This document shows, one piece after another, positions 4,077 to 36,207 of a stretch of 64,000 nt of DNA. The DNA is from Escherichia coli (GTDB lineage: Bacteria; Pseudomonadota; Gammaproteobacteria; Enterobacterales; Enterobacteriaceae). Numbering within the stretch: position 1 is the first letter of the stretch; each line of letters opens with the position of its first letter. The notes under the pieces are model-generated. The model was not told the origin of the DNA and did no database searches. It was given only the letters and a program-made list of their open reading frames with translations. Location of the stretch: the NCBI RefSeq assembly GCF_016026235.1, contig NZ_CP065613.1. One strand, 5' to 3'. The position numbers were made by a program, and so were the translations under genes.

Positions 4077-4186
4077 TTTGCTTCCAGAAATGATAAAAAA
4101 ATAATCAAAGGCCGGGGATTATAAGCCGGAACGAAAGAGAAATCGAAAAGTATTCCATACTCGCCCTCCTCGGGCGAGTATGAAGA

Positions 4187-5599: not shown

Positions 5600-5673
5600 A
5601 TTTGCTCCATGTAAAACTGGCTAAAGTAATACCGTGCAGGAAAGTATTCCCCGCAAAAATACAGATTGCCGAC

Positions 5674-6411: not shown

Positions 6412-6643
6412 AGCACCCTCTGAAGGTCTGAGAGACTGGCATTGTACGTCACCTGAAATCAGGTTAGGGCATTGTTAAAAGCCGCTCTCTGGAAAAGCGT
6501 ATTGTTAATCGCAACGCATGAATAAACAACGGTTTCAAGGGAATTTTTATCGTTTCCGGGGGTTGAATACGCTGCCGGATGACGACTTAACGTTTCATCC
6601 GGCGTTCCTTGCAAGCGGGAGGAAACAGGCCCTCCCCGGCATA

Positions 6644-8902: not shown

Positions 8903-9447
8903 TAATTCTGATTCCTCAACTTATTCGCCAGCCTTCAAAGGGGCAATATTGCCGGAGATACTACATTATCTGCCGCGTCGAGTCACAGGAGATCAGCGTG
9001 AATAGCGCCGCCGGACGTGCTCCGACGGCGATAAAGGCATCAATGTGCCTTGATATACAACTCTTTGCTGTAGACTTGATCGGCATAGAGGGCAGCACAA
9101 GGTTGCGCCCATGCCACACCACTCGGCATGGGGGTCCGCTCCGGGCGATTCGAGAAGTTGAGGTTATGCGAGTCCAGGGAAGCCTAAAGCATCAAAGTAG
9201 TCGACTGTAAGTATACGGTTCAGCCCAGTTTAGCTGTGTCTCCACCAGTGCCCCGCGCCTCCTGCCATAAGTGCGGCTTGCTCATGGATACCCCCGAGAC
9301 GGCTTACGGCGCACCGGATAATAAATTTCGCGTATACATGGTATTCCTTACCGGAGAAATTATAAGCCCAACAACAATACGCCTGTGGCATTGTTCGCTC
9401 AAACTTATCGCGAGTGATTTGGCTCACACTCCGGTAAAGATTCCCCA

Positions 9448-9930
9448 TCACGCTAACGGCACATAAACATCCGTTTCCAGTCGCTGCTCTGTCACCCCTT
9501 CGGCAAGATTGGTGTAGTGAAACAGAATCGGTGCTTTACGCATTTTCTCGCCGCTTGCAGGCAGCCAGTGGCGAATAATGCCCCATATCGTGTGTGAAAT
9601 ATCGTCCAGCTCGCCAACGTGGCGGGCCACGGCATAACGTCCACCGGTAAGTTCACCATTGCTCACACCATAACGATTATCGGGAATCGGTTCGCTAACG
9701 CTGCCGCAGATATCAAAGCGAAACGCTTCCGGTGCGGTGGTGGCAGGGTCGTCCCAGGCGACGCCAAAAGTCTGGCTTTGGTTAACAGGAGAAAGCCCCG
9801 TCTCTTTACGCCACATGATAAATTTCGCCACACTGTAGTTGAGCAACTCAGGGCTACAGCGGTGCGGCAACATCGCCACAGGGATTGATGGGAAATCGAT
9901 AATGTTTACATCCAGTGTCAGGTTTGTCAT
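9448..9930 (-). CDS. ygiV: GyrI-like/AraC-effector-domain transcriptional regulator YgiV
   Basis: 160-aa ORF; synteny next to ygiW. Confidence 0.85.
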   Translation of the reverse strand: MTNLTLDVNIIDFPSIPVAMLPHRCSPELLNYSVAKFIMWRKETGLSPVNQSQTFGVAWDDPATTAPEAFRFDICGSVSEPIPDNRYGVSNGELTGGRYAVARHVGELDDISHTIWGIIRHWLPASGEKMRKAPILFHYTNLAEGVTEQRLETDVYVPLA

Positions 9931-12916: not shown

Positions 12917-13627
12917 TTACTCATTAATCAATTTTTTGATATGTTCTCTAATCTCTAACAACCTCATACCATAAGAGATGAATTTATAATCATCTGTATC
13001 ACGCGCAGGCAAATTATTAATTAAATAAATAAAAAACCCCAAATCTCGTTCAACACCACGATTATATCTAATACCAGCCATAATATACTGCTCATTCGTC
13101 ATATACAGTGTTGCCGAAGAGGGATAATCAAAAAGGGCAAGATCTCTTAAATGAGTAGCAGCAATTTGAAACGTAAAATCATCTTCCATTAGGCATGTCG
13201 CTAACTCTAACTGATTTCTGGTAGTTAATTCTGAAGGGTCAAGACCTAGAGTAATCGCTGCGGTTCGTATTTGTATACCCATTGAGCCAAATGATGTTTT
13301 ATTTTCAGGCATATCTAACAATCCAATCATTCTTTTTGTTTCATATATCTGAAACTTATAATTTTCAGGCATACCTCCTGACTCAATCCAGGCCACACCG
13401 CCCAGTAACTCTGGACGAATCCCAGCGGCATATGCATGTTTAATTATTTTGTCCCTATTATATTGTACATATGCATCTTTATAAGCATTTAAATAATATA
13501 CTCCCGAACGGCGACGCGAATCATTTTTTCCTAACTTCCAGAGTAAAACGTCCATTTCATCCCATTTACGGAACTTAGTTTGTGGAATTGTACAATAGCT
13601 ATTTTTTATAGTGAGATCGCTTTTCAT
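12917..13627 (-). CDS. putative Hcp-associated effector with lytic-transglycosylase/lysozyme-like (GH23-like) motifs
   Basis: ORF track gives 12917..13654 with a TTG first codon overlapping hcp; ATG at 13627 (MKSDLTIKN...) sits 2 nt after the hcp stop. Motifs AWIESGG, GSMGIQI and AGIRYNRG resemble the ES / G-x-Q / YN-G signature of SLT-type muramidases (e.g. MltE QQESGGNPNA...GLMQL). A+T-rich; no signal peptide. Confidence 0.55.
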   Translation of the reverse strand: MKSDLTIKNSYCTIPQTKFRKWDEMDVLLWKLGKNDSRRRSGVYYLNAYKDAYVQYNRDKIIKHAYAAGIRPELLGGVAWIESGGMPENYKFQIYETKRMIGLLDMPENKTSFGSMGIQIRTAAITLGLDPSELTTRNQLELATCLMEDDFTFQIAATHLRDLALFDYPSSATLYMTNEQYIMAGIRYNRGVERDLGFFIYLINNLPARDTDDYKFISYGMRLLEIREHIKKLINE

Positions 13628-13629
13628 AT

Positions 13630-14109
13630 TTAAAAAACCCTTTCTTCCCAACAACTATATGATTCCGTACTCGCGATATGGTGCTTCCATGTTATATTTT
13701 TATAATTAAGAACAATAACCTCTTCCGGTTGATTACCCGCATGTGTAATTGAGTGTGGATAACAAGTCAGAATATTCGATAAATGTGCCCCTTGCAATTC
13801 AATTGTGTAAAACCTTTCAATACAACCGCCAGAATTAATTCTATAAAAATTAAATATAGCTGATAACTCTTCATTTTCAGAAAGAGCAGCATTTAATAAA
13901 GGGGAGGATTTATCTATTGGCTTGTAAAATTTTATGGGGTGATGCACTACATTATATTCTCGACTTAAAGAATGGTCGAACTGCAAAACAAAAATTTCAT
14001 CCACATGATTTATTTGATATTTATTACCAATAGATGCATACGAACCACAGCCCTCAGAGATCAAACCTTGTGTTTTCCCTTTAATTGATAAGTATATGAT
14101 ATTTGACAT
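13630..14109 (-). CDS. hcp: type VI secretion system tube protein Hcp (TssD family), orphan copy
   Basis: 159-aa ORF; IYLSIKGKTQGLISEG, IDKSSPLL and YKNITWKH match conserved Hcp blocks; GGAG Shine-Dalgarno 9 nt upstream; A+T-rich. Confidence 0.8.
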   Translation of the reverse strand: MSNIIYLSIKGKTQGLISEGCGSYASIGNKYQINHVDEIFVLQFDHSLSREYNVVHHPIKFYKPIDKSSPLLNAALSENEELSAIFNFYRINSGGCIERFYTIELQGAHLSNILTCYPHSITHAGNQPEEVIVLNYKNITWKHHIASTESYSCWEERVF

Positions 14110-19943: not shown

Positions 19944-21425
19944 ATGAAGAAATTGCTCCCCATTCTTATCGGCCTGAGCCTTTCTGGGTTCAGTTCGTTG
20001 AGCCAGGCCGAGAACCTGATGCAAGTTTATCAGCAAGCACGCCTTAGTAACCCGGAATTGCGTAAGTCTGCCGCCGATCGTGATGCTGCCTTTGAAAAAA
20101 TTAATGAAGCGCGCAGTCCATTACTGCCACAGCTAGGTTTAGGTGCAGATTACACCTATAGCAATGGCTACCGCGACGCGAACGGCATCAACTCTAACGC
20201 GACCAGTGCGTCCCTGCAGTTAACTCAATCCATTTTTGATATGTCGAAATGGCGTGCGTTAACGCTGCAGGAAAAAGCAGCAGGGATTCAGGACGTCACA
20301 TATCAGACCGATCAGCAAACCTTGATCCTCAACACCGCGACCGCTTATTTCAACGTGTTGAATGCTATTGACGTTCTTTCCTATACACAGGCGCAAAAAG
20401 AAGCGATCTACCGTCAATTAGATCAAACCACCCAACGTTTTAACGTGGGCCTGGTAGCGATCACCGACGTGCAGAACGCCCGCGCGCAGTACGATACCGT
20501 GCTGGCGAACGAAGTGACCGCACGTAATAACCTTGATAACGCGGTAGAGCAGCTGCGCCAGATCACCGGTAACTACTATCCGGAACTGGCGGCGCTGAAT
20601 GTCGAAAACTTTAAAACCGACAAACCACAGCCGGTTAACGCGCTGCTGAAAGAAGCCGAAAAACGCAACCTGTCGCTGTTACAGGCACGCTTGAGCCAGG
20701 ACCTGGCGCGCGAGCAAATTCGCCAGGCGCAGGATGGTCACTTACCGACGCTGGATTTAACGGCTTCTACCGGGATTTCTGACACCTCTTATAGCGGTTC
20801 GAAAACCCGTGGTACCGCTGGTACCCAGTATGACGATAGCAATATGGGCCAGAACAAAGTTGGCCTGAGCTTCTCGCTGCCGATTTATCAGGGCGGAATG
20901 GTTAACTCGCAGGTGAAACAGGCACAGTACAACTTTGTTGGTGCCAGCGAGCAACTGGAAAGCGCGCATCGTAGCGTCGTGCAAACCGTACGTTCCTCCT
21001 TCAACAACATTAATGCTTCTATCAGTAGTATTAACGCCTACAAACAAGCCGTAGTTTCCGCTCAAAGCTCATTAGACGCGATGGAAGCGGGCTACTCGGT
21101 CGGTACGCGTACCATTGTTGATGTGTTGGATGCGACCACCACGCTGTACAACGCCAAGCAAGAGCTGGCGAATGCGCGTTATAACTACCTGATTAATCAG
21201 CTGAATATTAAGTCAGCCCTGGGTACGTTGAACGAGCAGGATCTGCTGGCACTGAACAATGCGCTGAGCAAACCGGTTTCCACTAATCCGGAAAACGTTG
21301 CCCCGCAAACGCCGGAACAGAATGCTATTGCTGATGGTTATGCGCCTGATAGCCCGGCACCCGTCGTTCAGCAAACATCCGCACGCACTACCACCAGTAA
21401 CGGTCATAACCCTTTCCGTAACTGA
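19944..21425 (+). CDS. tolC: outer membrane channel TolC
   Basis: ORF 19905..21425; mature-length start at MKKLLPILIGLSLSGFSSLSQA signal peptide (493 aa). Confidence 0.95.
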   Translation: MKKLLPILIGLSLSGFSSLSQAENLMQVYQQARLSNPELRKSAADRDAAFEKINEARSPLLPQLGLGADYTYSNGYRDANGINSNATSASLQLTQSIFDMSKWRALTLQEKAAGIQDVTYQTDQQTLILNTATAYFNVLNAIDVLSYTQAQKEAIYRQLDQTTQRFNVGLVAITDVQNARAQYDTVLANEVTARNNLDNAVEQLRQITGNYYPELAALNVENFKTDKPQPVNALLKEAEKRNLSLLQARLSQDLAREQIRQAQDGHLPTLDLTASTGISDTSYSGSKTRGTAGTQYDDSNMGQNKVGLSFSLPIYQGGMVNSQVKQAQYNFVGASEQLESAHRSVVQTVRSSFNNINASISSINAYKQAVVSAQSSLDAMEAGYSVGTRTIVDVLDATTTLYNAKQELANARYNYLINQLNIKSALGTLNEQDLLALNNALSKPVSTNPENVAPQTPEQNAIADGYAPDSPAPVVQQTSARTTTSNGHNPFRN

Positions 21426-21431
21426 TGACGA

Positions 21432-21451
21432 CGACGGGGCTTCGGCCCCGT
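21432..21451 (+). terminator. hairpin after tolC
   Basis: gacggggc ttcg gccccgtc. Confidence 0.5.
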
Positions 21452-21572
21452 CTGAACGTAAGGCAACGTAAAGATACGGGTTATCTGCCGCATTCTTCCC
21501 CCTTCTCGCTTCAATTTCGACCAGCCATCCTCTATTCTGATGGGTATTTACCACTGGTCCCGGAAGACAAAA

Positions 21573-22244
21573 ATGAAACGGACAAAATCCATACGCCACG
21601 CATCGTTCCGCAAAAACTGGAGCGCACGCCATCTGACACCAGTCGCTCTCGCGGTTGCCACTGTTTTTATGCTGGCTGGCTGTGAAAAGAGTGATGAAAC
21701 AGTGTCTCTCTATCAAAATGCTGACGACTGTTCAGCTGCAAACCCAGGCAAAAGCGCCGAATGTACCACCGCGTACAACAATGCGCTGAAAGAAGCCGAA
21801 CGTACTGCGCCGAAATACGCCACCCGTGAAGACTGTGTTGCTGAATTTGGTGAAGGTCAGTGCCAGCAAGCACCAGCCCAGGCTGGCATGGCACCAGAAA
21901 ACCAGGCGCAGGCCCAGCAATCCAGCGGGAGTTTCTGGATGCCGCTGATGGCCGGTTACATGATGGGTCGTCTGATGGGCGGCGGTGCGGGATTTGCACA
22001 GCAGCCGCTGTTCTCCTCGAAAAACCCAGCCAGCCCGGCTTACGGTAAATATACCGACGCGACGGGTAAAAACTATGGCGCAGCCCAGCCAGGCCGCACC
22101 ATGACCGTACCGAAGACAGCCATGGCACCAAAACCGGCGACCACCACTACCGTTACCCGTGGCGGTTTTGGTGAATCTGTTGCCAAACAAAGCACTATGC
22201 AGCGTAGCGCAACCGGTACCTCTTCTCGTTCAATGGGTGGCTGA
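21573..22244 (+). CDS. ygiB: DUF1190 lipoprotein-like protein YgiB
   Basis: ORF 21540..22244; probable start at MKRTKSIRH (223 aa). Confidence 0.85.
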
Positions 22245-22249
22245 TACCG

Positions 22250-23410
22250 ATGGAAAGAGTCAGTATTACCGAGCGCCCGGACTGGCGTGAGAAAGCCCAC
22301 GAATACGGTTTCAATTTTCACACCATGTACGGCGAGCCGTACTGGTGTGAAGATGCTTACTACAAGTTGACCCTCGCCCAGGTTGAAAAGCTGGAAGAAG
22401 TCACCGCCGAACTGCACCAGATGTGCCTGAAAGTGGTGGAAAAAGTGATCGCCAGCGATGAGCTGATGACCAAATTCCGCATTCCAAAACACACCTGGAG
22501 TTTTGTGCGCCAGTCATGGCTGACGCACCAGCCATCGCTTTATTCGCGTCTTGATCTGGCGTGGGATGGCACTGGCGAACCTAAACTTCTGGAAAATAAC
22601 GCCGATACGCCAACGTCACTATACGAGGCGGCGTTCTTTCAGTGGATCTGGCTGGAAGATCAGCTTAACGCCGGTAACTTGCCGGAGGGCAGCGACCAGT
22701 TTAACAGTCTGCAAGAAAAACTGATCGATCGCTTCGTTGAGCTGCGTGAACAGTATGGCTTCCAGTTGCTGCATCTCACCTGCTGTCGCGACACAGTGGA
22801 AGATCGCGGAACCATTCAGTATTTGCAGGACTGCGCAACGGAAGCTGAAATTGCTACTGAGTTCCTCTACATCGATGATATCGGGTTAGGTGAAAAAGGT
22901 CAGTTCACGGATTTACAGGATCAGGTAATTTCCAACCTGTTCAAGCTGTATCCGTGGGAATTTATGTTGCGTGAGATGTTTTCCACCAAGCTGGAGGATG
23001 CAGGCGTACGCTGGCTGGAACCGGCCTGGAAGAGCATTATCTCCAACAAGGCACTTCTACCGCTGTTGTGGGAGATGTTCCCGAATCACCCGAACCTGCT
23101 GCCCGCTTATTTTGCGGAAGATGATCATCCGCAAATGGAAAAATATGTGGTTAAACCGATCTTCTCCCGTGAAGGCGCAAACGTATCGATCATTGAGAAC
23201 GGCAAAACCATTGAAGCAGCGGAAGGTCCGTATGGCGAAGAAGGGATGATTGTTCAGCAATTCCACCCGTTACCGAAATTCGGCGACAGCTATATGCTGA
23301 TTGGTAGCTGGCTGGTGAACGATCAACCTGCCGGAATTGGCATTCGTGAAGACCGTGCATTGATCACCCAGGATATGTCTCGGTTTTATCCACATATTTT
23401 TGTTGAATAA
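22250..23410 (+). CDS. ygiC: glutathionylspermidine synthase-like ATP-grasp protein YgiC
   Basis: 386-aa ORF; synteny. Confidence 0.9.
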
Positions 23411-23418
23411 TCAATGAT

Positions 23419-23442
23419 ACCGGATGGCATTCGCCATCCGGT
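23419..23442. terminator. bidirectional hairpin between ygiC and ygiD
   Basis: accggatggc attc gccatccggt perfect stem. Confidence 0.55.
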
Positions 23443-23447
23443 AATTG

Positions 23448-24263
23448 TTAACCTACCTGCACCGACAGCATACTCAGGCTGCCCATTTCTATACCCTCAA
23501 CCGGAATGGTAATTGGCTCCTGCCCATCCCACGCACCTAACACATACAACAACGGCAGATAATGCTCTGGCGTTGGGTTCGATAACGCGCCACCTTCATG
23601 GTCGAGGTAATTCACCAGAGGATGTTGTTCCACTGGCCCTTGCCACGTCAGATTCGCTTTCACATACTCATTAAACGACGTCGCCCACGGATACGGTGAA
23701 CTATCACCGTGCCACTTCACTGTGCGCAGGTTATGCACCACGTTACCGCTGGCGACCAACATTATTCCTTCATCTCGCAGCGCTGCCAGTTTGCGCCCCA
23801 TTTCGAAATGCCAAGCGGCAGGTTTGCTACTGTCGATACTCAACTGCACCATCGGGATATCCGCGTCAGGATACATCTTAATCAGCACGCCCCAGGAACC
23901 GTGGTCAAAGCCCCAGGCTTCTTTATCCAGCGTCACCGGGATCGGCGCTAACAGCTCAACCAGACGCTGTGCCAGCGCAGGCGAACCCGGAGCAGGATAA
24001 TGCGTATCGTACAGCGCCTGCGGGAAGCCACCAAAGTCATGAATCGTGGGCGGCGTCTCCATCGCGGTCACTCCTGTTCCACGGGTAAACCAGTGAGCCG
24101 AAACCACCACAATCGCTTGCGGGCGTGGCAATGTCATCCCCAACTTCTGCCAGCTGCGGGTATACAAATTATCTTCCAGCACGTTCATCGGACTACCGTG
24201 ACCTAAAAACAATGCTGGCATACGTGTTGAAGACATGATGATATCCTTAACTAAAGGTGTCAT
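23448..24263 (-). CDS. ygiD: 4,5-DOPA dioxygenase extradiol-like protein YgiD
   Basis: 271-aa ORF; an internal ATG at 24236 (MSSTRMPALF..., AAGGA upstream) is an alternative start. Confidence 0.85.
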   Translation of the reverse strand: MTPLVKDIIMSSTRMPALFLGHGSPMNVLEDNLYTRSWQKLGMTLPRPQAIVVVSAHWFTRGTGVTAMETPPTIHDFGGFPQALYDTHYPAPGSPALAQRLVELLAPIPVTLDKEAWGFDHGSWGVLIKMYPDADIPMVQLSIDSSKPAAWHFEMGRKLAALRDEGIMLVASGNVVHNLRTVKWHGDSSPYPWATSFNEYVKANLTWQGPVEQHPLVNYLDHEGGALSNPTPEHYLPLLYVLGAWDGQEPITIPVEGIEMGSLSMLSVQVG

Positions 24264-24378
24264 TTTGATATCCTCACAATACGCTTGTTCGGCGGAGTAA
24301 GAACCCGGATAACAATGATGATGATCATCAGTTATTTTGACGATCTGCCTGAAGGTGAAGATTTATAAGGAGTTGTCG

Positions 24379-25152
24379 ATGTCAGTACCTCTCATTCTGA
24401 CCATACTGGCGGGGGCAGCCACGTTTATTGGCGCGTTTCTCGGCGTTCTCGGGCAAAAACCCTCGAACCGCTTACTGGCGTTTTCGCTAGGATTTGCGGC
24501 GGGGATCATGTTGCTCATCTCATTAATGGAAATGCTTCCTGCCGCACTAGCTGCTGAAGGAATGTCGCCTGTGTTGGGTTATGGAATGTTTATCTTCGGT
24601 CTGCTTGGCTATTTTGGCCTGGACCGCATGTTGCCGCATGCGCATCCGCAGGATTTAATGCAAAAATCGGTGCAGCCGTTGCCAAAATCGATCAAGCGCA
24701 CAGCCATACTGCTCACTCTCGGCATCAGTCTGCATAACTTCCCGGAAGGGATTGCCACCTTTGTCACGGCGAGCAGCAACCTGGAGCTAGGCTTTGGCAT
24801 CGCCCTGGCCGTAGCGTTGCACAATATTCCTGAAGGTCTGGCGGTTGCAGGCCCGGTTTACGCGGCAACGGGGTCTAAACGCACGGCAATTCTGTGGGCG
24901 GGGATTTCTGGACTAGCAGAAATTCTTGGTGGTGTGCTGGCGTGGTTAATCCTCGGTAGCATGATTTCCCCGGTGGTCATGGCGGCAATCATGGCGGCGG
25001 TTGCAGGAATTATGGTGGCGCTCTCGGTTGATGAATTAATGCCGCTCGCCAAAGAGATTGACCCTAATAATAACCCCAGCTATGGCGTACTATGTGGAAT
25101 GTCAGTGATGGGATTCAGTTTAGTGCTGCTACAAACGGCGGGAATTGGTTAA
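24379..25152 (+). CDS. zupT: zinc transporter ZupT (ZIP family)
   Basis: ORF 24337..25152; start at [19 protein letters not shown] (257 aa). Confidence 0.92.
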
Positions 25153-25161
25153 AAGCAACAT

Positions 25162-25192
25162 CAGAAGTTGTCCAGCGCATGGACAACTTCTG
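25162..25192 (+). terminator. hairpin after zupT
   Basis: cagaagttgtcc agcgcat ggacaacttctg. Confidence 0.55.
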
Positions 25193-25209
25193 CTAGCTTC
25201 ACTAAAGCC

Positions 25210-25404
25210 TTATTCTACCTTTTCGGCTGTCTCTTCTCTCGTACTGTTTAAGTATTTGTTCCGCGCTTCAAGCAGTGCGTCTCTGTCCTGGCGAAACGCC
25301 CGACAATAACGTTTCAAATGCAGGAAATAACCCACCACAACCAGAACAATCAATACAATCCAGTACCAGGCGATAAACATCCTTTTACCCTTAATATTTA
25401 ACAA
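25210..25404 (-). CDS. hypothetical small membrane protein (one TM helix)
   Basis: 64-aa ORF with hydrophobic stretch IAWYWIVLIVLVVVGYFL; not recognised by me. Confidence 0.35.
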   Translation of the reverse strand: MLNIKGKRMFIAWYWIVLIVLVVVGYFLHLKRYCRAFRQDRDALLEARNKYLNSTREETAEKVE

Positions 25405-25571
25405 TACTAAACATTTAGCGCATAAATTTCACATATCCTTTTTCGGATATATTCATATGGTCGCATAATAACGGAACAATTATATGATTTTGATCATAAT
25501 GAAAAAGAATGCCTGATATTAATGAAATTTTCTCATAGAAAGAGAAGCGGAATTAACATCTTGCATAGCAG

Positions 25572-25608
25572 GGAAAAATAAAAACCGAAGCCTGCTACAA
25601 CTTCGGTT
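25572..25608 (-). terminator. rho-independent terminator after ribB
   Basis: aaccgaag...cttcggtt stem followed on the minus strand by TTTTTATTTTT. Confidence 0.7.
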
Positions 25609-25641
25609 TCTTGATTAAGGCAGTAAATTAAGCAGCGGTTT

Positions 25642-26295
25642 TCAGCTGGCTTTACGCTCATGTGCCTGACGGTATGCCACCAAGTCTTCAATAGTCACGA
25701 GTGCCATATTGTGTTTATTGGCAAACTCAATGCACTCTGGTGCACGCGCCATCGTGCCATCGTCATTAGTCAGCTCACACAGCACACCAGCCGGTTTAAA
25801 GCCTGCCAGCGTCATTAGATCAATAGTTGCTTCAGTATGACCGCCACGCGTCAGTACACCACCAGCCTGAGCGCGGAGTGGGAAAACGTGGCCCGGGCGA
25901 TTCAGATCAGAAGGTTTTGCGCCATCGGCAATCGCTGCGCGAACGGTCGTAATACGGTCAGCGGCAGAAACACCGGTAGTCACACCTTCAGCCGCTTCAA
26001 TGGTCACGGTAAAACCGGTGCCATAGGCGCTGGTGTTATTTTCTACCATCATTGGCAGATCGAGTTGTTTACGGCGATCTTCAGTAATGCACAGGCAAAC
26101 AATACCGCTACCGTGGCGAATGGTCAGCGCCATCTGCTCAACGGTCATGGTTTCTGCCGGGAAGATCATATCACCTTCGTTTTCACGGTCTTCATCATCA
26201 AGCACCATTACACCGCGTCCTTCACGCAGCGCAGCCAGTGCATTTTCAACACGTTCGAAAGGCGTACCAAAAGAGGAAAGTAGCGTCTGATTCAT
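25642..26295 (-). CDS. ribB: 3,4-dihydroxy-2-butanone 4-phosphate synthase
   Basis: 217-aa ORF; synteny. Confidence 0.95.
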
Positions 26296-26403
26296 GGTAA
26301 AAAAACCTCACTAAAATTATGGTTACCAGAATCAGGGCAGTCTTAGGAGTGGCGGCATATAGCCAAAATAACGTGAGCGGGTCCATGCCCGACAGAATCG
26401 TTA

Positions 26404-26542
26404 CTCTCTCCCATCCGGACTCTAACCGTCGGCCCCGGAATTACACCGGATCTGCTGTCCTTTGAGTTCGCACCCAAAGCGCTCGCGGGCTTTCAACTGA
26501 GTTGATTTACCGCCGGTGGGGAATTTCGCCCCGCCCTGAGAA
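26404..26542 (-). promoter_or_regulatory. FMN riboswitch (RFN element) in the ribB leader
   Basis: minus strand reads ...GGGCGGGGCGAAATTCCCCACCGGCGGTAAA...CCGGGGCCGACGGTTAGAGTCCGGATGGGAGAG, the conserved RFN core. Confidence 0.85.
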
Positions 26543-26668
26543 TAAGCGGATTCACTATAACGCTAATGATTAGCGGCAGCAACGCATAGCTTCACATAAT
26601 TCTGGTTTATGACTTACCCTTATCGCACTACAATGGCACTCAACACCTATCAGTACAGGGAAACTACA

Positions 26669-26968
26669 ATGATTGACCCGAAAAAAATTGAGCAAATCGC
26701 TCGCCAGGTTCACGAATCAATGCCTAAAGGAATCAGGGAGTTCGGGGAAGATGTGGAGAAAAAAATCCGCCAAACCCTACAAGCGCAGCTGACGCGTCTC
26801 GATCTGGTGAGCCGCGAAGAATTCGACGTACAGACGCAAGTCCTGTTACAGACTCGTGAAAAACTGGCGTTACTGGAGCAGCGCATCAGTGAACTGGAGG
26901 CGCGCAATAATTCGGTAGCAGATCTTCAATCTCCTCCGGCTATCCCGCCTATTGATAAAGCAGAATAA
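26669..26968 (+). CDS. ubiK: ubiquinone biosynthesis accessory factor UbiK (YqiC)
   Basis: ORF 26609..26968; likely start at MIDPKKIEQ with AGGGA Shine-Dalgarno; coiled-coil. Confidence 0.85.
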
Positions 26969-26980
26969 AGCAACACAAAA

Positions 26981-26998
26981 ACGGGCCAGACGGCCCGT
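26981..26998. terminator. hairpin between convergent ubiK and glgS
   Basis: acgggcc aga cggcccgt. Confidence 0.5.
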
Positions 26999-27002
26999 AA
27001 TA

Positions 27003-27203
27003 TCAGTGTTCTAATTCAAGTTCTCTGGTTTGCATCATCTGTTGGCAATACCAGGCATAACGTGCGCAAAACCAGGTTCTATGTTCTTCATCCATGTTAC
27101 CAGTAACGGCCAGAATATCGACCGGGCGACCTTCTGCGTGCATTCTGGCAAAACTACGCGCCAGGAAATCGAAATTATTTAAAGAATTAAGACTATGATC
27201 CAT
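27003..27203 (-). CDS. glgS: glycogen synthesis / surface composition regulator GlgS
   Basis: 66-aa [18 protein letters not shown]... (ORF track starts 2 codons earlier). Confidence 0.9.
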
Positions 27204-27471
27204 AAGCACATCCTCCGGTTATCGCATACCTTTTAAGGCCATATGCTTTTTCTGATTTCAGTATTCCCCAATCAGTGTAGTGCCTTTAAACATAACGTGC
27301 GTAAATATATTGTCCCCGATCACACTTTTTAGTGAAAAATAAAAAACCATATTAAAAGACTTTCTCTTCCAGAACTTCTCTAACGTGTGTTATTATTAAT
27401 AAAGATAAATGTAAGCAAGGAAACTATCCCAAAGTGAATATTGCGTCACTAAATGGACATTGGAGTGACAT

Positions 27472-28101
27472 ATGATTTTATTCGCCGACTATAATACCCC
27501 TTATCTTTTCGCTATTTCCTTTGTACTGTTGATCGGCCTTTTAGAAATTTTTGCGCTTATCTGCGGTCACATGCTCTCCGGTGCTCTTGATGCACATCTT
27601 GACCATTATGATTCCATAACCACAGGTCATATTAGCCAGGCACTTCATTATCTCAATATCGGAAGATTGCCAGCTCTCGTCGTTCTCTGCTTGCTGGCTG
27701 GTTTTTTTGGTCTTATTGGCATCCTGTTGCAGCATGCCTGCATCATGGTCTGGCAATCACCACTGTCGAACCTGTTCGTGGTTCCTGTCAGTTTACTGTT
27801 TACGATTATTGCGGTGCATTATACCGGTAAAATAGTTGCGCCCTGGATTCCACGCGACCATAGTTCAGCTATTACAGAAGAAGAATATATTGGTAGCATG
27901 GCATTAATTACCGGTCATCAAGCCACTTCAGGTAATCCCTGCGAAGGAAAACTCACCGATCAATTTGGCCAAATACATTATTTACTACTGGAGCCTGAAG
28001 AAGGAAAAATTTTCACTAAAGGAGACAAAGTGTTAATTATTTGCCGACTTTCTGCAACGCGATATTTGGCGGAAAACAATCCCTGGCCCCAAATATTGTA
28101 A
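27472..28101 (+). CDS. yqiJ: inner membrane protein YqiJ (DUF1449)
   Basis: 209-aa ORF with multiple TM helices; synteny. Confidence 0.88.
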
Positions 28102-28127
28102 TTTATTAATCAAAAGGAAATTTAATA

Positions 28128-29789
28128 ATGGATGATATTGTTAATTCTGTGCCCTCCTGGATGTTTACCGCGATTATTGCCGTATGCATTCTGTTTATTA
28201 TTGGAATTATTTTCGCCAGGCTCTATCGTCGCGCTTCAGCAGAGCAAGCATTTGTCCGTACCGGCTTAGGGGGGCAAAAAGTGGTAATGAGCGGTGGCGC
28301 AATCGTGATGCCGATCTTTCATGAAATAATCCCCATCAATATGAATACTCTGAAGCTGGAAGTCAGCCGCTCAACCATTGATAGCCTGATTACGAAAGAT
28401 CGTATGCGCGTCGATGTAGTAGTCGCTTTCTTTGTGCGGGTAAAACCTTCAGTAGAAGGGATTGCCACCGCTGCCCAGACGCTGGGGCAACGCACCCTGT
28501 CGCCTGAAGACTTACGTATGTTGGTTGAAGATAAATTTGTCGATGCCCTCCGTGCAACAGCTGCGCAAATGACCATGCATGAGTTACAGGATACCCGCGA
28601 GAACTTCGTGCAGGGAGTACAAAATACCGTAGCTGAAGATCTGTCGAAAAACGGCCTGGAACTGGAAAGCGTTTCACTTACCAACTTTAACCAGACCTCG
28701 AAAGAACATTTCAATCCGAACAATGCCTTTGACGCCGAAGGTTTAACCAAACTGACTCAGGAGACGGAGCGCCGTCGCCGCGAGCGTAACGAAGTTGAAC
28801 AGGATGTAGAAGTTGCGGTGCGTGAGAAAAACCGTGATGCACTTTCGCGCAAGTTGGAGATTGAACAACAAGAAGCGTTTATGACGCTTGAGCAGGAGCA
28901 GCAAGTTAAAACCCGTACCGCTGAACAAAATGCGAAAATTGCTGCTTTTGAAGCTGAACGTCGTCGTGAAGCAGAGCAGACGCGAATTCTGGCTGAACGA
29001 CAGATTCAGGAAACAGAAATCGACCGCGAACAGGCCGTCCGCTCAAGAAAAGTTGAAGCTGAACGTGAAGTTCGCATTAAAGAGATCGAACAGCAGCAGG
29101 TCACCGAAATCGCTAACCAGACGAAATCGATCGCTATTGCCGCCAAATCGGAACAACAGTCCCAGGCAGAAGCGCGTGCTAACCTTGCACTCGCAGAAGC
29201 AGTAAGCGCCCAACAAAACGTAGAAACCACTCGCCAGACAGCCGAAGCCGATCGTGCCAAGCAGGTGGCGCTGATTGCCGCAGCACAGGATGCAGAAACC
29301 AAAGCGGTTGAACTGACCGTGCGGGCGAAAGCAGAAAAAGAAGCCGCAGAGATGCAGGCGGCGGCGATCGTTGAGTTAGCCGAAGCTACGCGTAAAAAAG
29401 GCCTGGCGGAAGCAGAAGCACAACGTGCGCTGAACGATGCTATCAACGTACTTTCTGACGAACAAACCAGCCTTAAATTCAAACTGGCCTTGTTGCAGGC
29501 GCTACCTGCGGTAATAGAGAAATCCGTGGAACCAATGAAGTCCATTGACGGTATCAAGATTATTCAGGTCGATGGTCTGAATCGTGGTGGTACTGCGGGG
29601 GATGCAAACACGGGTAATGTGGGGGGCGGAAACCTGGCGGAACAAGCATTATCAGCCGCACTCTCTTACCGCACACAGGCACCACTGATTGACTCCTTGC
29701 TCAATGAAATTGGCGTTTCAGGCGGCTCACTGGCTGCATTGACTTCACCCTTAACCTCAACAACTCCCGTCGCCGAAAACGTAGAATAA
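28128..29789 (+). CDS. yqiK: flotillin-like SPFH/band-7 protein YqiK
   Basis: 553-aa ORF, N-terminal TM then SPFH domain and long E/A/Q-rich coiled-coil. Confidence 0.9.
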   Translation: MDDIVNSVPSWMFTAIIAVCILFIIGIIFARLYRRASAEQAFVRTGLGGQKVVMSGGAIVMPIFHEIIPINMNTLKLEVSRSTIDSLITKDRMRVDVVVAFFVRVKPSVEGIATAAQTLGQRTLSPEDLRMLVEDKFVDALRATAAQMTMHELQDTRENFVQGVQNTVAEDLSKNGLELESVSLTNFNQTSKEHFNPNNAFDAEGLTKLTQETERRRRERNEVEQDVEVAVREKNRDALSRKLEIEQQEAFMTLEQEQQVKTRTAEQNAKIAAFEAERRREAEQTRILAERQIQETEIDREQAVRSRKVEAEREVRIKEIEQQQVTEIANQTKSIAIAAKSEQQSQAEARANLALAEAVSAQQNVETTRQTAEADRAKQVALIAAAQDAETKAVELTVRAKAEKEAAEMQAAAIVELAEATRKKGLAEAEAQRALNDAINVLSDEQTSLKFKLALLQALPAVIEKSVEPMKSIDGIKIIQVDGLNRGGTAGDANTGNVGGGNLAEQALSAALSYRTQAPLIDSLLNEIGVSGGSLAALTSPLTSTTPVAENVE

Positions 29790-30026
29790 ATTTTCAGCTA
29801 TGAACATCCCTGGCCCAAAAAGCCGAGGATTTTTTATATCTGCGTTCCGATAAAAAGTGCAAATGATCGGGCTGTTGCAGCATTTTGCGTGACCGCTCGG
29901 GGAAGGCAAAACTACCTCAGGGAAAGCGTTGCGCGGGGTCCGGCGCTCATCAACAATCGGGGAGTCAGCAAGGGGCTGAAACGGGAAAGCCCCTCCCGAA
30001 GAAGGGGCCTTGTATAAGGAAAGGGT

Positions 30027-30086
30027 TATGATGAAGCTCGTCATCATACTGATTGTGTTGTTACTCGTAAGTTTCGCAGCTTATTA
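30027..30086 (+). CDS. ibsD: type I toxin IbsD (19-aa hydrophobic peptide)
   Basis: ATGATGAAGCTCGTCATCATACTGATTGTGTTGTTACTCGTAAGTTTCGCAGCTTATTAA = MMKLVIILIVLLLVSFAAY; too short for the ORF track. Confidence 0.8.
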
Positions 30087-30104
30087 ACAGCCAATCAGAG
30101 GGGG

Positions 30105-30113
30105 GAGAAATCC
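30105..30113. repeat. target-site duplication, left copy (agaaatcct)
   Basis: identical 9-mer recurs at 31409-31417 flanking the IS. Confidence 0.7.
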
Positions 30114-31408
30114 TCTGAGGGATCCCCAGAAAATTTAGTAAACCATTATCATATTGGTATACCGTTGCTGTAGAACTTTCAGCCCTGCGTCAAATGACAG
30201 TGTGTTTAGTATGAGTGGAGAATGTCGAATCACATTCTCCGCCAGTTTTAATAACGAGATGACTCGCCTGTGCTTCACTGTATTTGCCTGATATTTATGA
30301 TGTATCCCTTTGTTTTCCAGGCTGAAACCGCTTAACCACATAATGATACTGGCTAATGTTGCGATCAGACTCAATACCGTGACCCGCCCGGATGAATGAC
30401 TGGCACCAAACCGTAGTCCAAATCCCCAGCGAGGATTTTTTTCATCCCTGAAATTTTGCTCAATTTGCATTCTACGGCTGTATAATTTCATTACCTGTTT
30501 TGGCGAGAACTCAGTACTGTTTGTGAAAATAAACCATGGTGATTTCCCGGCAGTACGAGCTTTAGCCGTCACCGATGGTCTGGTTGCTCTTTCCTTCGAG
30601 CGTTTAAATCTACGACCTTTAGGCTTACTTTTATAAAGATAAAAATGCCCTTCATGTTGTGCATTTTTATCTCGACCCAGCAGGCCTTCACCTAAATAAA
30701 TTGCTGTCGTTGATGCTTTTGTGCCTGAGTCCGACACCTTTTCCCAGCCATTACCAACATTGTAATAATGATTGCCCAGTACCCGGCAAATATAGGTCCA
30801 GCCACGGGAGCGGAGCTGTTGGAACCATCGCCCCTGAAAACCGGCATCTGTAATAACAATGACATCAGTCCCGGGGGAAAAGCACTCAGCAAGCGATTCC
30901 AGAAAACGCTCATGTACATCTGCATTCGCTGTCTGTGATGATGGAACGACACAACTCATCAACGGTAAAGAACGCCCGTCACATGCCAGGCTTGCCCGCA
31001 AAAGCTGAAAACGAGAGGCATGATAAGCACTCCAGTCAATGAGTATCACAACACGAGACATTCCCGCGTAATCTTTTGGGTAATTCGCTGAAAAATGGTG
31101 GAAACCTCATTTTGCAAATGTCGATTCCCCAACAGTCGATCCACCCGCTTTATTTTGTTTTTAACTGATGCCGTACCGGTTAAATGACGCCCGATACTGG
31201 TAAGTGTGAGGGAAGCGCCATTTATTACAGCATTAGTTGCGTCAATCAGTGATTTTTGACGGTAAAGATGCAAAGGGGCCAGTATATTGTTAAGGAAATT
31301 TTGGCATAATGAACGTGCAGGCATAGTGGTGATCTCCTTGAAATTGTTAGCACAATCAATTAGATCACATCTCACTATGCCTGTCTTGTTTTCTGGGGAT
31401 TCCTCAGG
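30114..31408 (-). mobile_element. IS10-like insertion sequence (IS4 family), about 1.3 kb
   Basis: terminal inverted repeats CTGAGGGATCCCCAGAAAA / CTGAGGAATCCCCAGAAAA (IS10 ends are CTGA..GATCCCC); 9-bp direct repeats; transposase homologous to IS10 Tnp. Confidence 0.85.
30135..31375 (-). pseudogene. IS10-like DDE transposase split into two ORFs by a frameshift
   Basis: ORF 31375..31046 (LTLTSIGRHLTGTASVKNKIKRVDRLLGNRHL, like IS10 Tnp N-terminus) and ORF 31061..30135 (ILIDWS...VITDAGF...RMQIEQNFRDEK) are in different frames; IS10 Tnp is one 402-aa ORF. Confidence 0.65.
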
Positions 31409-31417
31409 AGAAATCCT
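31409..31417. repeat. target-site duplication, right copy (agaaatcct)
   Basis: matches 30105-30113. Confidence 0.7.
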
Positions 31418-31429
31418 CCCTTACCCTTG

Positions 31430-31465
31430 TTCCTTTACTTTAGGTTGAAAAAAAATCAGCGTCAA
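31430..31465 (-). promoter_or_regulatory. sibD promoter-like element, now separated from the sibD body by the IS
   Basis: minus strand TTGACG - 17 nt - TAAAGT; the equivalent TTGACG - 17 nt - TAGAGT sits upstream of sibE at 31814-31841. Confidence 0.5.
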
Positions 31466-31659
31466 GAAGGTTTCATTAACACATATCCCTAGCCCAAAAA
31501 GCCGGGGATTTTTTATATCTGCGTTCCGCTAAAAGGTGCAAATGCTCAGGACGTTGCAGCGTTTTGCGTGACCGCTCGGGGAAGGCAAAACTGCTTCAGG
31601 GAAAGCGTTGCGCGGGGTCCGGCGCTCATCAACAATCGGGGAGTCAGCAAGGGGCTGAA

Positions 31660-31806
31660 ACGGGAAAGCCCCTCCCGAGGAAGGGGCCTTATAGAAGGAA
31701 AGGGTTATGATGAAGCTCGTCATCATACTGGTTGTGTTGTTACTGTTAAGTTTCCCGACTTACTAACAACTGATCAGAGGGGGGAGAAATCCTCCCTTAC
31801 CCTTGT
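31660..31806 (-). ncRNA. sibE: SibE antitoxin sRNA (antisense to ibsE), apparently intact
   Basis: promoter-like TTGACG/TAGAGT at 31814-31841 on the minus strand; overlaps ibsE; ends approximate. Confidence 0.55.
31707..31766 (+). CDS. ibsE: type I toxin IbsE (19-aa hydrophobic peptide)
   Basis: MMKLVIILVVLLLLSFPTY followed by TAA. Confidence 0.8.
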   Translation: MMKLVIILVVLLLLSFPTY

Positions 31807-31885
31807 TCCTTTACTCTAGGTTGAAAAAACAACAGCGTCAATAGGCCTGCCATGTACGAAGCGAGATCTGTGAACCGCTTTCCGG

Positions 31886-33319
31886 TTAGCCTTTTTTATC
31901 CTGTTGGATCTTCTTGATAATGTTAGTGGTCGAGCAACCGTCTTCAAAGTTGAGCACCAACACTTCGCCGCCGTTGGCCCAGACTTCTTTACTCCCGGCG
32001 ATCTCTTCCGGTTTGTAGTCACCGCCTTTCACCAGCAGGTCTGGCAGGATCCCGGCGATCAGACGCTGCGGCGTGTCTTCTTCAAACGACACTACCCAGT
32101 CGACCGCTTCCAGTGCGCCCAGCACAATCATACGCTGTTCGAGTGGGTTTACCGGGCGGGAATCCCCTTTCAGCCGTTTGGTGGAGGCATCGCTGTTGAC
32201 GGCAACAATCAAGCGGTCACCCAGCTTGCGGGCATTTGCCAGATAAGAGACGTGCCCGGCATGTAGGATATCGAAGACACCGTTGGTCATTACCACTTTT
32301 TCACCACGTTTACGCGCTGCCGCTACAGCCAGCTTCAGTTCCTCTTCGGTCATCACGCCAAAGCCGGTATCTGCGCGTCCACGTACAGCGTTTTCCAGCT
32401 CGATCGGCGAAACCGTGGAGGTTCCCAGTTTGCCGACCACCACGCCAGCCGCCGCATTGGCAAAGAAGCAGGCTTCTTCCAGCGAATTACCCGCTGCCAG
32501 CGTTGCCGCCAGGACGCCAATCACCGTGTCGCCCGCACCGGTAACGTCATACACTTCCTGCGCTTGGGTTGGCATATGCAGCGGCGCTTTACCCGGTTGC
32601 AGCAGCGACATACCCTGTTCGGAACGGGTCACTAACAGAGCCGAGAGTTCGTAATCGGCAATCAGTTTCATGCCGCGCTCAACAATCTCTTCTTCGGACT
32701 TACATTTACCGACAACAGCTTCAAATTCCGAGAGATTCGGCGTTAACAGCGTAGCGCCGCGGTAGCGCTCAAAATCGGTACCTTTTGGATCAATCAGCAC
32801 CGGAACACCCGCTTTACGCGCCAGTTGGATCATCTGCTGTACGCTTGCCAGCGCACCTTTGGCGTAGTCAGAAAGCACCAGCGCGCCAATCGAACTCAGC
32901 GCCTGATTAATCCGCTCGTGCAACGGCTGCGGATCAACACCTTCGAAACCTTCTTCAAAATCCAGACGGATCAGCTGTTGGTTGCGGGAAAGTACCCGTA
33001 ATTTGGTAATGGTCGGATGCGTCGGTACAGAAACGAAGTCGCATTTGACGTTGACGTCGGCCAGAGATTTACTCAGCGCGCGCGCTGCATCGTCAATGCC
33101 CGTCAACCCGACCAGACGTGCATTAGCACCGAGAGAAGCGATATTCATCGCCACGTTAGCCGCGCCGCCCGGGCGTTCTTCGATGGTATTCACTTTAACC
33201 ACGGGCACCGGCGCTTCCGGCGAGATACGGCTGGTGGGACCGTACCAGTAACGATCCAGCATCACATCACCAACCACCATCACTCCTGCTCGTTCAAACT
33301 CTGGCAGCGTTACTTTCAT
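31886..33319 (-). CDS. hldE: bifunctional D-beta-D-heptose 7-phosphate kinase / heptose 1-phosphate adenylyltransferase
   Basis: 477-aa ORF, ribokinase-like N-domain and cytidylyltransferase C-domain. Confidence 0.95.
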
Positions 33320-33366
33320 TCCTGTCTCCTGAGAGATTCAAAATTTGCGCGCGATAATACCATACT

Positions 33367-36207
33367 TCATTCTTCCACCAGCCACTTCTGCCAGCTTGCC
33401 CGCACCAAATCACGCTCTGCGGTGAAGCAATCCTCCGACACATGGCCCGGCAATTCCTGTAATGCCAGATGATGAAGTTCATCGCGAAGCGTCGTGTAAG
33501 CACGGGTCAGCGCCATCGCTTCCTGCTCTTCCATAATGTCGTTTTGCGCCAGCAGTTCCAGAATGCGCACGTTGTCTGACCAGCGCGTTAACTTCGGTTT
33601 TTCATGAGCGTAGCGCAACACCAGATATTGGGTAATAAATTCGATATCGGTAATTCCGCCTTCATCGGCTTTGATATCAAAGCGATCGCGATGTTTATTG
33701 CCGAGATGAGCGCGCATTTTCTCGCGCATTTCCCGCACTTCTGTTTGCAGGGTTTTGCCTTCGCGCGGCAGCGCCATAATCTCACGACGCACCGCGTCAA
33801 AGTGCGCGGTGAGCTGCGGATCGCCGTACACTACACGCGCACGCACCAGCGCCTGATGTTCCCACGTCCAGGCCTCGTTTTTCTGATAATCGGCAAATGC
33901 TTCTGCGGATGTCACCAGCATTCCCGCCGCCCCGGACGGACGCAGTCGAGCATCCACTTCATACAAAATGCCGGAAGAGGTACGCGTACTGAACAGATGC
34001 ATAATGCGTTGCGCCAGACGCAGATAAAACTGCCGCCCGTCGATTTCCCGCTCACCGTCAGTCATCGCATCCATTGGGCAATCATGGAGGAAGATAAGGT
34101 CAAGATCGGAACTGTAGCCTAACTCCCAGCCGCCCAGCTTGCCGTAGCCGACCACTGCAAAACCACGCCCTTCGCGTTCGTTCAGGTGATTCGGCTTACC
34201 GTAGCGGGCAACCATTTGAACCCACGCCTGCTGAACGACGGCATCTATCATGGCTTCCGCCAGCCAGGTTAAGTGATCGCTCACTTTCATCACCGGTAGC
34301 GTACCGGCGATATCCGCTGCGGCGATGCGTAACAGCTGCGCCTGTTTGAACTGACGCAGCGCCTCAAGCTGTTGCTCTTCGTCATCTTCCGGCACGCGCA
34401 GCAAATACTGGCGCAACTCATCGCGGTAGGCATCGGTCGCCGTCGGCTGGTAAAGGGTGTTTGGATCGAGCAATTCATCCAGCAATAATGGATAACGCGC
34501 CAGCTGGCTGGCAATCATCGGCGACGCGGCACACAGAGAAATCAAATGTTTAAGCGCCGCGGGGAATTCACTGAGCAATTCTAAATAGGTGGTGCGGGTA
34601 ACAATCCCCACCAGCAAGGCGGTAATGCGCGACAGCGTAACGGCAGCGTCTTCACGCGCACAGACATCACTTAGCAGATGCGGCATCAGATGGTCGAGCA
34701 CCTGACGTCCTCGCGGCCCGATGGTGCGCTTATCCAGCTCTTTGCGGAAATCGGCAATCAGCGTTAGTACCTGTTTGCGATCGTCCTCGCTAAGATGCGC
34801 CAGCACTGGCGTAGTGTCATCTTCCTGCAACGCATCCTGCCACAGCTCACGCCACTGTTCCGACAGCGACTCTTCCTGAGTTTCACTTTCGTCGTCGCCA
34901 ATCAATTCATTAAACACCCGGCGCACATTGGTCATATGTGCGGTCAGCGCCCCGGTCAGTTGCGGCCAGTCAGCAAAGTCCATCGCCCACGCCAGCCGCG
35001 CACGGTTAAGCTCATCAGAAGGAAGCGTCTGGGTTTGTTCGTCGTTAATGCTTTGCAGCAGGTTTTCCAGACGCCGCAGGAACAGATACGCCACTCGCAA
35101 TTGTTCAGCATCGTTTTCAGAAAGCAGATGCAGCGCGGCAATGACGCTGAGCGTTGGCAGTAAAGAGCGCGACTGCAGCGACGGTTCGCGCCCACCGCGA
35201 ATGAGCTGGAACACCTGAACGATAAATTCAATTTCGCGAATGCCGCCTGCGCCGAGTTTGATATTGTCGGTCAAACCACGTCGACGCACTTCACGGGCAA
35301 TCATCCCTTTCATGTTGCGCAGCGACTGAATCACGCTGAAATCGATGTAACGACGGAAAACAAACGGGCGCAGCATCGCACGCAACTCGTTAGCATAGAC
35401 GCCTTCGCTATCGCCCATAATCCGCGCCTTGACCATCGCGTAACGCTCCCAGTCGCGCCCCTGCTCCTGGTAATAATCTTCCAACGCGGCAAAGCTCAGC
35501 ACCAGCGGGCCACTTTCGCCAAACGGACGCAGTCGCATATCCACGCGATAGACAAAGCCATCCTGCGTTGGTTGATCCAGCACTTTAATCAGCCGCTGCC
35601 CCATGCGGGTAAAAAACTGCGCATTATCCAGTTCCCGGCGTCCACCCTGCGTACAACCATGTTCCGGCCAGGCAAAAATCAGATCGATATCTGAGGAGAA
35701 ATTCAGTTCCCCGCCGCCCAGCTTACCCATGCCTAAAATCAGCAGCGGTTGCGCTTCGCCCTGCGCATTGCACGGCGTTCCCCACTCGCGGCAGCAGGCG
35801 TCATATAGCCAGTCACGCGCCGCAACAATCAGTGTCTCCGCCAGATAGCTGAGCTGCTGCAATATGCTCTCTTCAGTAACCAGTGCCAGCGTTTGCGCCC
35901 AGGCGATACGTACCATAATGCGCCGCCGGAACAGCCGCAGCTCGCGCATTAACCCGGCTTCGTCACTCACATTACTGAGCGCCTCCTGCAACCATGCAAC
36001 GTAATGCTGCCATTCGTCGGCCTGCGGCGGTTGGCTTTCCAGTTCCGTCAGCCACTCTGGATGCGCAATCACGCTGTCCTGCACAAAGTCACTGAAAGTA
36101 AGTACTGACTTCGCCTGCGCGCTAAGTGATTCCTCGGCTAAAGGCTCTGGCAGCCGCTCAACAACGGTCTGCCAGTACTGCTGTAACGGTGAAGAGAGCG
36201 GCTTCAT
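33367..36207 (-). CDS. glnE: glutamine synthetase adenylyltransferase/adenylyl-removing enzyme
   Basis: ORF track 33367..36411; 946-aa product starting [13 protein letters not shown] at the ATG ending at 36207. Confidence 0.93.

Follow-up and report, generated by a model that had tools for sequence, protein, structure and literature searches.

Adjacency of ubiK and glgS in an Escherichia coli genome probably represents the ancestral, un-inserted allele of the junction that carries a fimbrial operon in K-12

Results

The ubiK–glgS junction

The 64-kb stretch of E. coli DNA analysed here (the window) carries the gene order zupT-yqiD-ribB-ubiK-glgS-yqiJ-yqiK, in which ubiK and glgS are convergent, i.e. 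they lie tail to tail around a single hairpin. According to both the ORF list and the sequence itself, the ubiK stop codon TAA occupies positions 26966..26968 and the glgS stop codon, on the minus strand, positions 27003..27005, and the spacer between the two genes reads AGCAACACAAAAACGGGCCAGACGGCCCGTAATA. The features of the junction are the following:

26669..26968, plus strand: ubiK (yqiC), 99 aa, with an outgroup-type C-terminal tail (ORF list; Pfam)
26969..27002, no strand: ubiK–glgS spacer of 34 bp, empty here but occupied by the ygiL-yqiGHI island in genomes of the K-12 type (sequence; ORF list)
26981..26998, minus strand: predicted intrinsic-terminator hairpin of glgS (folding; terminator scan; conservation)
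27003..27203, minus strand: glgS, 66 aa (ORF list; Pfam; RefSeq annotation of a near-identical locus)

The UbiK protein matches the Pfam family BMFP (UbiK family) over residues 1–78 (E = 4e-27) and GlgS the Pfam family GlgS (E = 1e-45); in the genome FDAARGOS_943, the same coordinates are annotated as ubiK. Codon 61 of ubiK (26849..26851) specifies Gln61 inside the conserved BMFP domain in the window, and Arg61 in K-12, in the near-identical FDAARGOS_943 and in all outgroups examined. A scan of 26300..27600 for sigma-70 promoters yielded no matches.

An earlier note on this DNA had described ubiK and glgS as directly adjacent, 34 bp apart, and the yqi fimbrial operon and its IS2 as absent. The adjacency is borne out by the ORF list and the sequence, and the absence holds within the 64-kb window: YgiL, YqiG, YqiH and YqiI gave no match anywhere in it (tblastn, E <= 1e-3), nor did the four proteins of the ExPEC adhesin I operon considered below (tblastn, E <= 1e-3) or IS2 (blastn, K-12 IS2I as query). 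There is no Yqi-like locus, i.e. YqiG usher, YqiH chaperone, YgiL major subunit and YqiI adhesin between ubiK and glgS, no IS2I insertion and no K-12-type ubiK 3' end encoding a 96-aa UbiK, the protein having 99 aa and an outgroup-type tail instead. The 34-bp spacer itself contains no operon remnants and no scar, and is colinear with the spacers of outgroup species.

In MG1655, by comparison, the order is ribB, ubiK (b3042), ygiL, yqiG, yqiH, yqiI, glgS, yqiJ, yqiK, where yqiG is a pseudogene because IS2I (insC5/insD5) interrupts it. The K-12 order ubiK-ygiL-yqiG::IS2-yqiH-yqiI-glgS, which the earlier note had given, is thus correct according to the MG1655 annotation, and adjacency of ubiK and glgS is not the K-12 state. 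Without IS2, the K-12 island measures 5,241 bp and has a GC content of 40.1%, as against 51.6% for the window, and the K-12 spacer between ubiK and ygiL has 23% GC. In many operon-bearing genomes IS elements reside in the usher gene. MG1655 and the window share the flanking genes and the same hairpin stem beside glgS, but K-12 differs by the 5.2-kb operon of 40% GC with its IS2I, by a 96-aa UbiK with another tail and by a diverged glgS 3' end. The K-12 ygiL-yqiGHI genes correspond to the 'Yqi-like' chaperone-usher fimbriae of Wurpel et al. 2013 (PMC3559732).

A conserved hairpin downstream of glgS

The hairpin consists of ACGGGCC (26981..26987), the loop AGAC and GGCCCGT (26992..26998), i.e. 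a 7-bp stem with six GC pairs and a loop of 4 nt; the single hairpin reported earlier is indeed present, except that its loop had been counted as 3 nt and its right arm as 8 rather than 7, a trivial difference. Folded as RNA, 26960..27010 reaches -17.0 kcal/mol on the plus strand (z = -5.0, matched by 0/200 shuffles) and -17.5 kcal/mol on the minus strand (z = -4.0, matched by 1/200). The GC-rich stem-loop lies just past a stop codon, as expected of a terminator, namely 4 nt past that of glgS on the minus strand and 12 nt past that of ubiK. On the minus strand, the stem runs into the U-tract TTTTTGTGTT that a glgS terminator should have, and because of this a consensus terminator scan made its call on that strand only. 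On the plus strand, the hairpin is followed by TAATATCAGTG (tail TAATATCAGT), which does not provide a U-tract for ubiK.

Spacers of Escherichia, Citrobacter, Raoultella and Klebsiella share the stem ACGGGCC/GGCCCGT but differ in the loop; in Salmonella, the first pair of the stem is G-U. Across an alignment of 14 sequences from six genera, including Salmonella, all seven pairs are kept, with the loop and the flanks varying. The stem thus persists at orthologous positions, as a terminator should, by conservation only: the 14 aligned sequences contain no compensatory change in the stem, which is neutral as to structure, since an invariant stem leaves no room for covariation. Superficieibacter has a different hairpin at the same place. 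In K-12, the hairpin is retained between yqiI and glgS, next to glgS (positions 9718..9735 of the K-12 locus).

By its position, sequence and conservation, the hairpin would therefore act as the Rho-independent terminator of glgS. It is very improbable that the hairpin instead belongs to a REP-like or other repeat family or is a palindrome that arose by chance: a longer palindrome of different sequence in the Pseudocitrobacter spacer and several palindromes in one Superficieibacter spacer of 241 bp might be read in this way, but the window (64 kb) and the K-12 locus each contain the motif just once, it is located 4 nt past the glgS stop codon with a U-tract on the glgS strand, the stem is conserved across six genera around a loop free to vary, and the fold z-scores are -4 to -5.

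By position, the hairpin is also the sole structure that, in the empty state, separates ubiK from transcription running antisense into glgS. Its role as a terminator for ubiK is uncertain, because there is no U-tract on the plus strand and the scan call is confined to the minus strand, and any efficient termination on this side we would only infer. Bidirectional terminators are Rho-independent terminators common to convergent genes, and the window resembles them in having one GC-rich hairpin that lies between convergent stop codons and is flanked by an A-tract and, on the opposite side, a T-tract; the window hairpin differs in being asymmetric, with a proper U-tract for glgS only and UAAUAUCAG on the ubiK side.

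Occurrence of the empty and occupied states in E. coli

In a set of 5,426 complete RefSeq E. coli genomes, ubiK and glgS are contiguous in about 38% (2,067 with a 1.4-kb query and 2,057 with a 261-bp query across the junction), and the K-12-type operon lies between them in about 62% (about 3,362/5,426). The K-12-type junction, i.e. ubiK tail, spacer and start of ygiL, was found in 3,363/5,426. As the counts for empty and occupied sites add up to the total, each genome has one state or the other, and no genome with an empty site has the operon at another place; for the same reason, the type of UbiK tail and the presence of the island are completely linked. Empty ubiK–glgS sites occur in O157:H7, O25b:H4-ST131, ST95-complex strains and many others, with junctions that range from 99.6% down to about 95% identity to the window.

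A second fimbrial site between yqiD and ribB

A second empty site lies 1.3 kb to the left of ubiK–glgS:

25381..25641, no strand: yqiD–ribB spacer, second empty site, 261 bp (ORF list; comparison with FDAARGOS_943)

A sensitive search with K-12 yqiH-yqiI returned about 900 further genomes with matches of 60–80% to a chaperone gene. In the strains SK1144 and APEC IMT5155 and in an O2:H6 strain, the matching gene belongs to a four-gene chaperone-usher operon between yqiD and ribB, the position being the same in all of the loci inspected, and ubiK and glgS are adjacent in all three strains. This operon, termed ExPEC adhesin I or 'yqi', has been characterized experimentally in APEC IMT5155 (Antao et al. 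2009, PMC2771359). Like the K-12-type operon, ExPEC adhesin I (APEC IMT5155, CFT073 c3792, ST131) is a four-gene chaperone-usher operon of the same family and in the same 5-kb neighbourhood, and the two are mutually exclusive; it differs in being located at yqiD–ribB rather than ubiK–glgS and in its proteins, which are 38–60% identical to those of the K-12 type (60, 56, 50 and 38% for YgiL, YqiG, YqiH and YqiI, respectively). The window has no such four-gene operon between yqiD and ribB. The adhesin I operon is present in 994 of the 5,426 genomes, and yqiD and ribB are contiguous in 4,427, the window included; by inclusion–exclusion, about 1,068–1,070/5,426 genomes (20%), among them O157:H7 and the window, are empty at both sites. 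The description of ubiK–glgS as a known variable adhesin site thus holds in so far as this junction is polymorphic, but the adhesin I that has been characterized is a paralogous operon at yqiD–ribB.

In genomes bearing adhesin I, the zupT 3' end and the yqiD region are only about 77% identical to the window (25100..25500), i.e. this second island also brings strongly diverged flanks. A homologous four-gene chaperone-usher operon is found just left of ribB in Citrobacter, Enterobacter, Lelliottia, Pseudocitrobacter and Klebsiella spallanzanii (loci L011, L016, L020, L023, L025, L026, L029-L031, L057, L074 and L076; about 2000..6900 in each), where E. coli B2 has ExPEC adhesin I; in K. spallanzanii, the proteins share 53–70% identity with those of adhesin I. 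The yqiD–ribB interval thus looks like an old fimbrial site across the Enterobacteriaceae.

The junction in outgroup species

A scan with UbiK as the query and one genome per species returned 80 outgroup loci. In all of those that have glgS (19/19), this gene directly follows ubiK on the opposite strand. The 19 loci belong to a divergent genome labelled E. coli (about 90% identical to the window), E. albertii, eight Citrobacter, Salmonella enterica subsp. arizonae, two Superficieibacter, two Pseudocitrobacter, two Raoultella and two Klebsiella. Their spacers measure 28–73 bp with one exception of 241 bp, and those of E. albertii and the divergent Escherichia (28–34 bp) as well as Citrobacter (32–33 bp) are colinear with that of the window. 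With this colinearity and the lack of remnants, the window has what an ancestral empty allele should have. Moreover, the tail of its UbiK resembles the outgroup tails (...PAPAIPPVDPQE; in Citrobacter and Salmonella ...KPAPAIPPVDPQE), whereas the K-12 tail, NRSTEIKKQPDPETLPPTL, is like none of them.

Alleles flanking the site

Operon-bearing and empty genomes differ not only by the island but also in the sequence on either side of it. The segment concerned is

26797..27045, no strand: haplotype-diagnostic segment, i.e. 3' part of ubiK, spacer and 3' end of glgS (bounded by the first and last differences from K-12)

and is sharply different from that of operon-bearing genomes, but shares 92–100% identity with other genomes that are empty at the site. 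Between about 26240 and 26796 the window does not differ from K-12, and from there identity falls towards the ubiK stop codon to 93, 87, 90, 80, 57, 50 and 33% in successive 60-bp windows; on the right side, it is 73–90% through the hairpin and the last ~45 nt of glgS and 100% from 27046 on. O121:H19 (phylogroup B1), with an operon allele 94.5% identical to that of K-12, shows the same divergence profile, which is absent from O157:H7, IMT5155, SK1144 and FDAARGOS_943. The part of UbiK that cannot be aligned starts just past the BMFP domain (residue 78). The 3' half of K-12-type ubiK shares 89% identity with the empty-type allele and 84.5% with E. albertii and is therefore a genuine but deeply diverged ubiK end. 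As a potential donor of this K-12-type 3' half, none of the 80 outgroup loci is closer than the E. coli empty allele, i.e. 89%.

Relatives of the window and further features of the surrounding sequence

The closest relative over 15 kb (20300..35003) is FDAARGOS_943, which is 99.95% identical, one IS apart. For the larger segment 14001..39000, no complete RefSeq E. coli genome reaches at least 99% over the full length; the best matches, among them O145:H28 and several poultry or environmental strains, show 98.6–98.8% identity at 94–95% coverage, whereas certain genomes reach 99.9% over single segments, which gives the region a mosaic look. E. coli O157:H7 (phylogroup E; ECP19-2498 here and Sakai/EDL933 in Wurpel Table S2) shares with the window the gene order from zupT to yqiK, two empty fimbrial sites, a 99-aa UbiK and an identical spacer with hairpin. 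It is about 98.7% identical at the nucleotide level over the 9-kb flanks and so belongs to another lineage, and the window in addition has an ISEc60 copy nearby and an Hcp islet.

This islet comprises two genes on the minus strand between ygiZ and mdaB (12917..14109), i.e. a gene for an Hcp-family T6SS tube/effector protein of 159 aa (13630..14109; Pfam T6SS_HCP, E = 2e-19) and a 245-aa ORF (12917..13654) with no Pfam match. It is missing from the otherwise colinear KKo009 locus and present in 1,261/5,426 E. coli genomes, where the annotation reads 'Hcp family type VI secretion system effector' and hypothetical protein. The IS4-like ISEc60 copy (30116..31406) is located between two sib/ibs type I toxin-antitoxin repeats. 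With 1,291 bp, compared with 1,292 bp in other copies, and a transposase split into ORFs of 109 and 308 aa, its transposase gene is probably frameshifted. Full-length ISEc60 occurs in only 14/5,426 genomes, including FDAARGOS_943 with 38 places and EIEC CFSAN029787 with several; FDAARGOS_943 does not have the particular copy seen in the window. Finally, parC (6644..8902, minus strand) and ygiV (9448..9930, minus strand) are separated by only 545 bp (8903..9447). Here ygiS is missing, with 243 bp in place of 1,551 bp of the KKo009 locus, and so is the mqsR/mqsA toxin-antitoxin pair, which K-12 has at this place.

Discussion

An important question is what the absence of the fimbrial operon at this locus represents. 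Outgroup synteny together with the hairpin, the type of UbiK tail and the low GC content of the island all argue that direct adjacency of ubiK and glgS would be the ancestral enterobacterial gene order, to which the K-12 operon was added as an acquired island, the direction of change, i.e. insertion, being one that we infer. 'Absent' here does not mean deleted, but that either this allele never received the operon or an empty allele has taken the place of an occupied one. Taking the flanking alleles into account as well, we consider it highly probable that the junction in the window is the ancestral allele, without insertion, and that the K-12-type operon haplotype was imported by recombination.

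The course of events that seems most likely would begin with a donor already having the operon between ubiK and glgS, from which the entire haplotype would have been imported by homologous recombination, with crossovers presumably inside ubiK and inside glgS. Along with the operon, the imported haplotype would have included ~170 bp of diverged ubiK 3' sequence, i.e. the other UbiK tail, and ~50 bp of diverged glgS 3' sequence, and it would have placed the 5.2-kb low-GC operon between ubiK and the hairpin in what is now about 62% of E. coli. The same picture would also arise from a very old polymorphism.

The alternative that fares best is secondary loss, in which homologous recombination with an empty-site donor would have given the empty allele back to an operon-bearing ancestor of this strain. 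Immediately outside 26797..27045, K-12, O121:H19 and O157:H7 are all 100% identical to the window for several hundred bp, which makes the diagnostic segment appear as a small exchangeable cassette, and the 25-kb surroundings look mosaic, with no complete genome of at least 99% identity over their full length. However, the genomes closest over 15 kb, i.e. FDAARGOS_943 (99.95%) and O145:H28/O157:H7-like genomes, are empty too, and all of the phylogroup E strains in Wurpel Table S2 are empty. Vertical retention is therefore the more parsimonious explanation, and replacement appears unlikely. Far less plausible still is an in-situ deletion between ubiK and glgS in a lineage that once had the K-12-type operon: E. 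coli often loses or disrupts its fimbrial operons, and the usher gene of many operon-bearing genomes contains IS elements (IS2I in K-12), but a deletion would leave behind the K-12-type ubiK tail and glgS 3' end, whereas the window has empty-type alleles over 26797..27045 and a scar-free spacer colinear with outgroups, and the window-type tail is found in all of the ~2,060 empty genomes and the K-12-type tail in all of the ~3,363 operon-bearing ones. As an origin of the empty state, in-situ deletion is thus rejected by the flank alleles, there being no empty-site genome with K-12-type flanks.

The locus also bears on lineage. Wurpel et al. (PMC3559732) distinguished two closely related, mutually exclusive operons, 'Yqi' and 'Yqi-like', and their Table S2 lists Yqi in most B2 strains, strain 042 and E. 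fergusonii, Yqi-like in 8/8 phylogroup A and 7/7 B1 strains as well as IAI39, and neither in 536, F11, E2348/69, UMN026, SMS-3-5 and 5/5 phylogroup E strains. Since all three states are tabulated there, the state of the window had already been catalogued; adjacency of ubiK and glgS is a common and ordinary condition and in itself nothing new. The suggestion in the earlier note that the state is informative about lineage holds against phylogroups A and B1, with 15/15 of the Table S2 strains bearing the operon, but with 2,067/5,426 genomes empty it does not pin down a single lineage. Overall, the locus argues against A, B1 and the lineages that carry adhesin I, and fits phylogroup E and some members of D, F and B2.

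Beyond annotation and typing, the significance of these findings is small. At ubiK–glgS, the K-12 reference represents the derived state, and the strain from which the window stems has neither of the two yqi-family fimbrial operons of this neighbourhood. A common conflation is also corrected, as the ExPEC adhesin I 'yqi' at yqiD–ribB is a paralogue of, and not the same as, K-12 ygiL-yqiGHI at ubiK–glgS. Explicitly marking the K-12 arrangement as derived by comparison with outgroups goes slightly beyond the literature, and mildly new is the perfect linkage of the K-12-type operon to an alternative C-terminus of UbiK. Tentatively, the K-12-type yqi operon may be seen not as a simple insertion but as an allelic cassette that rewrites the last ~20 codons of the housekeeping gene ubiK, with UbiK isoforms of 96 and 99 aa occurring at a ratio of ~62:38 in complete linkage with presence or absence of the operon, and with the ubiK and glgS ends of the cassette, diverged by 11–15%, pointing either to an unsampled donor at the level of Escherichia or to a very old maintained polymorphism. 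If so, though this is a rather doubtful possibility, the two tails might differ functionally in the UbiK–UbiJ ubiquinone accessory complex.
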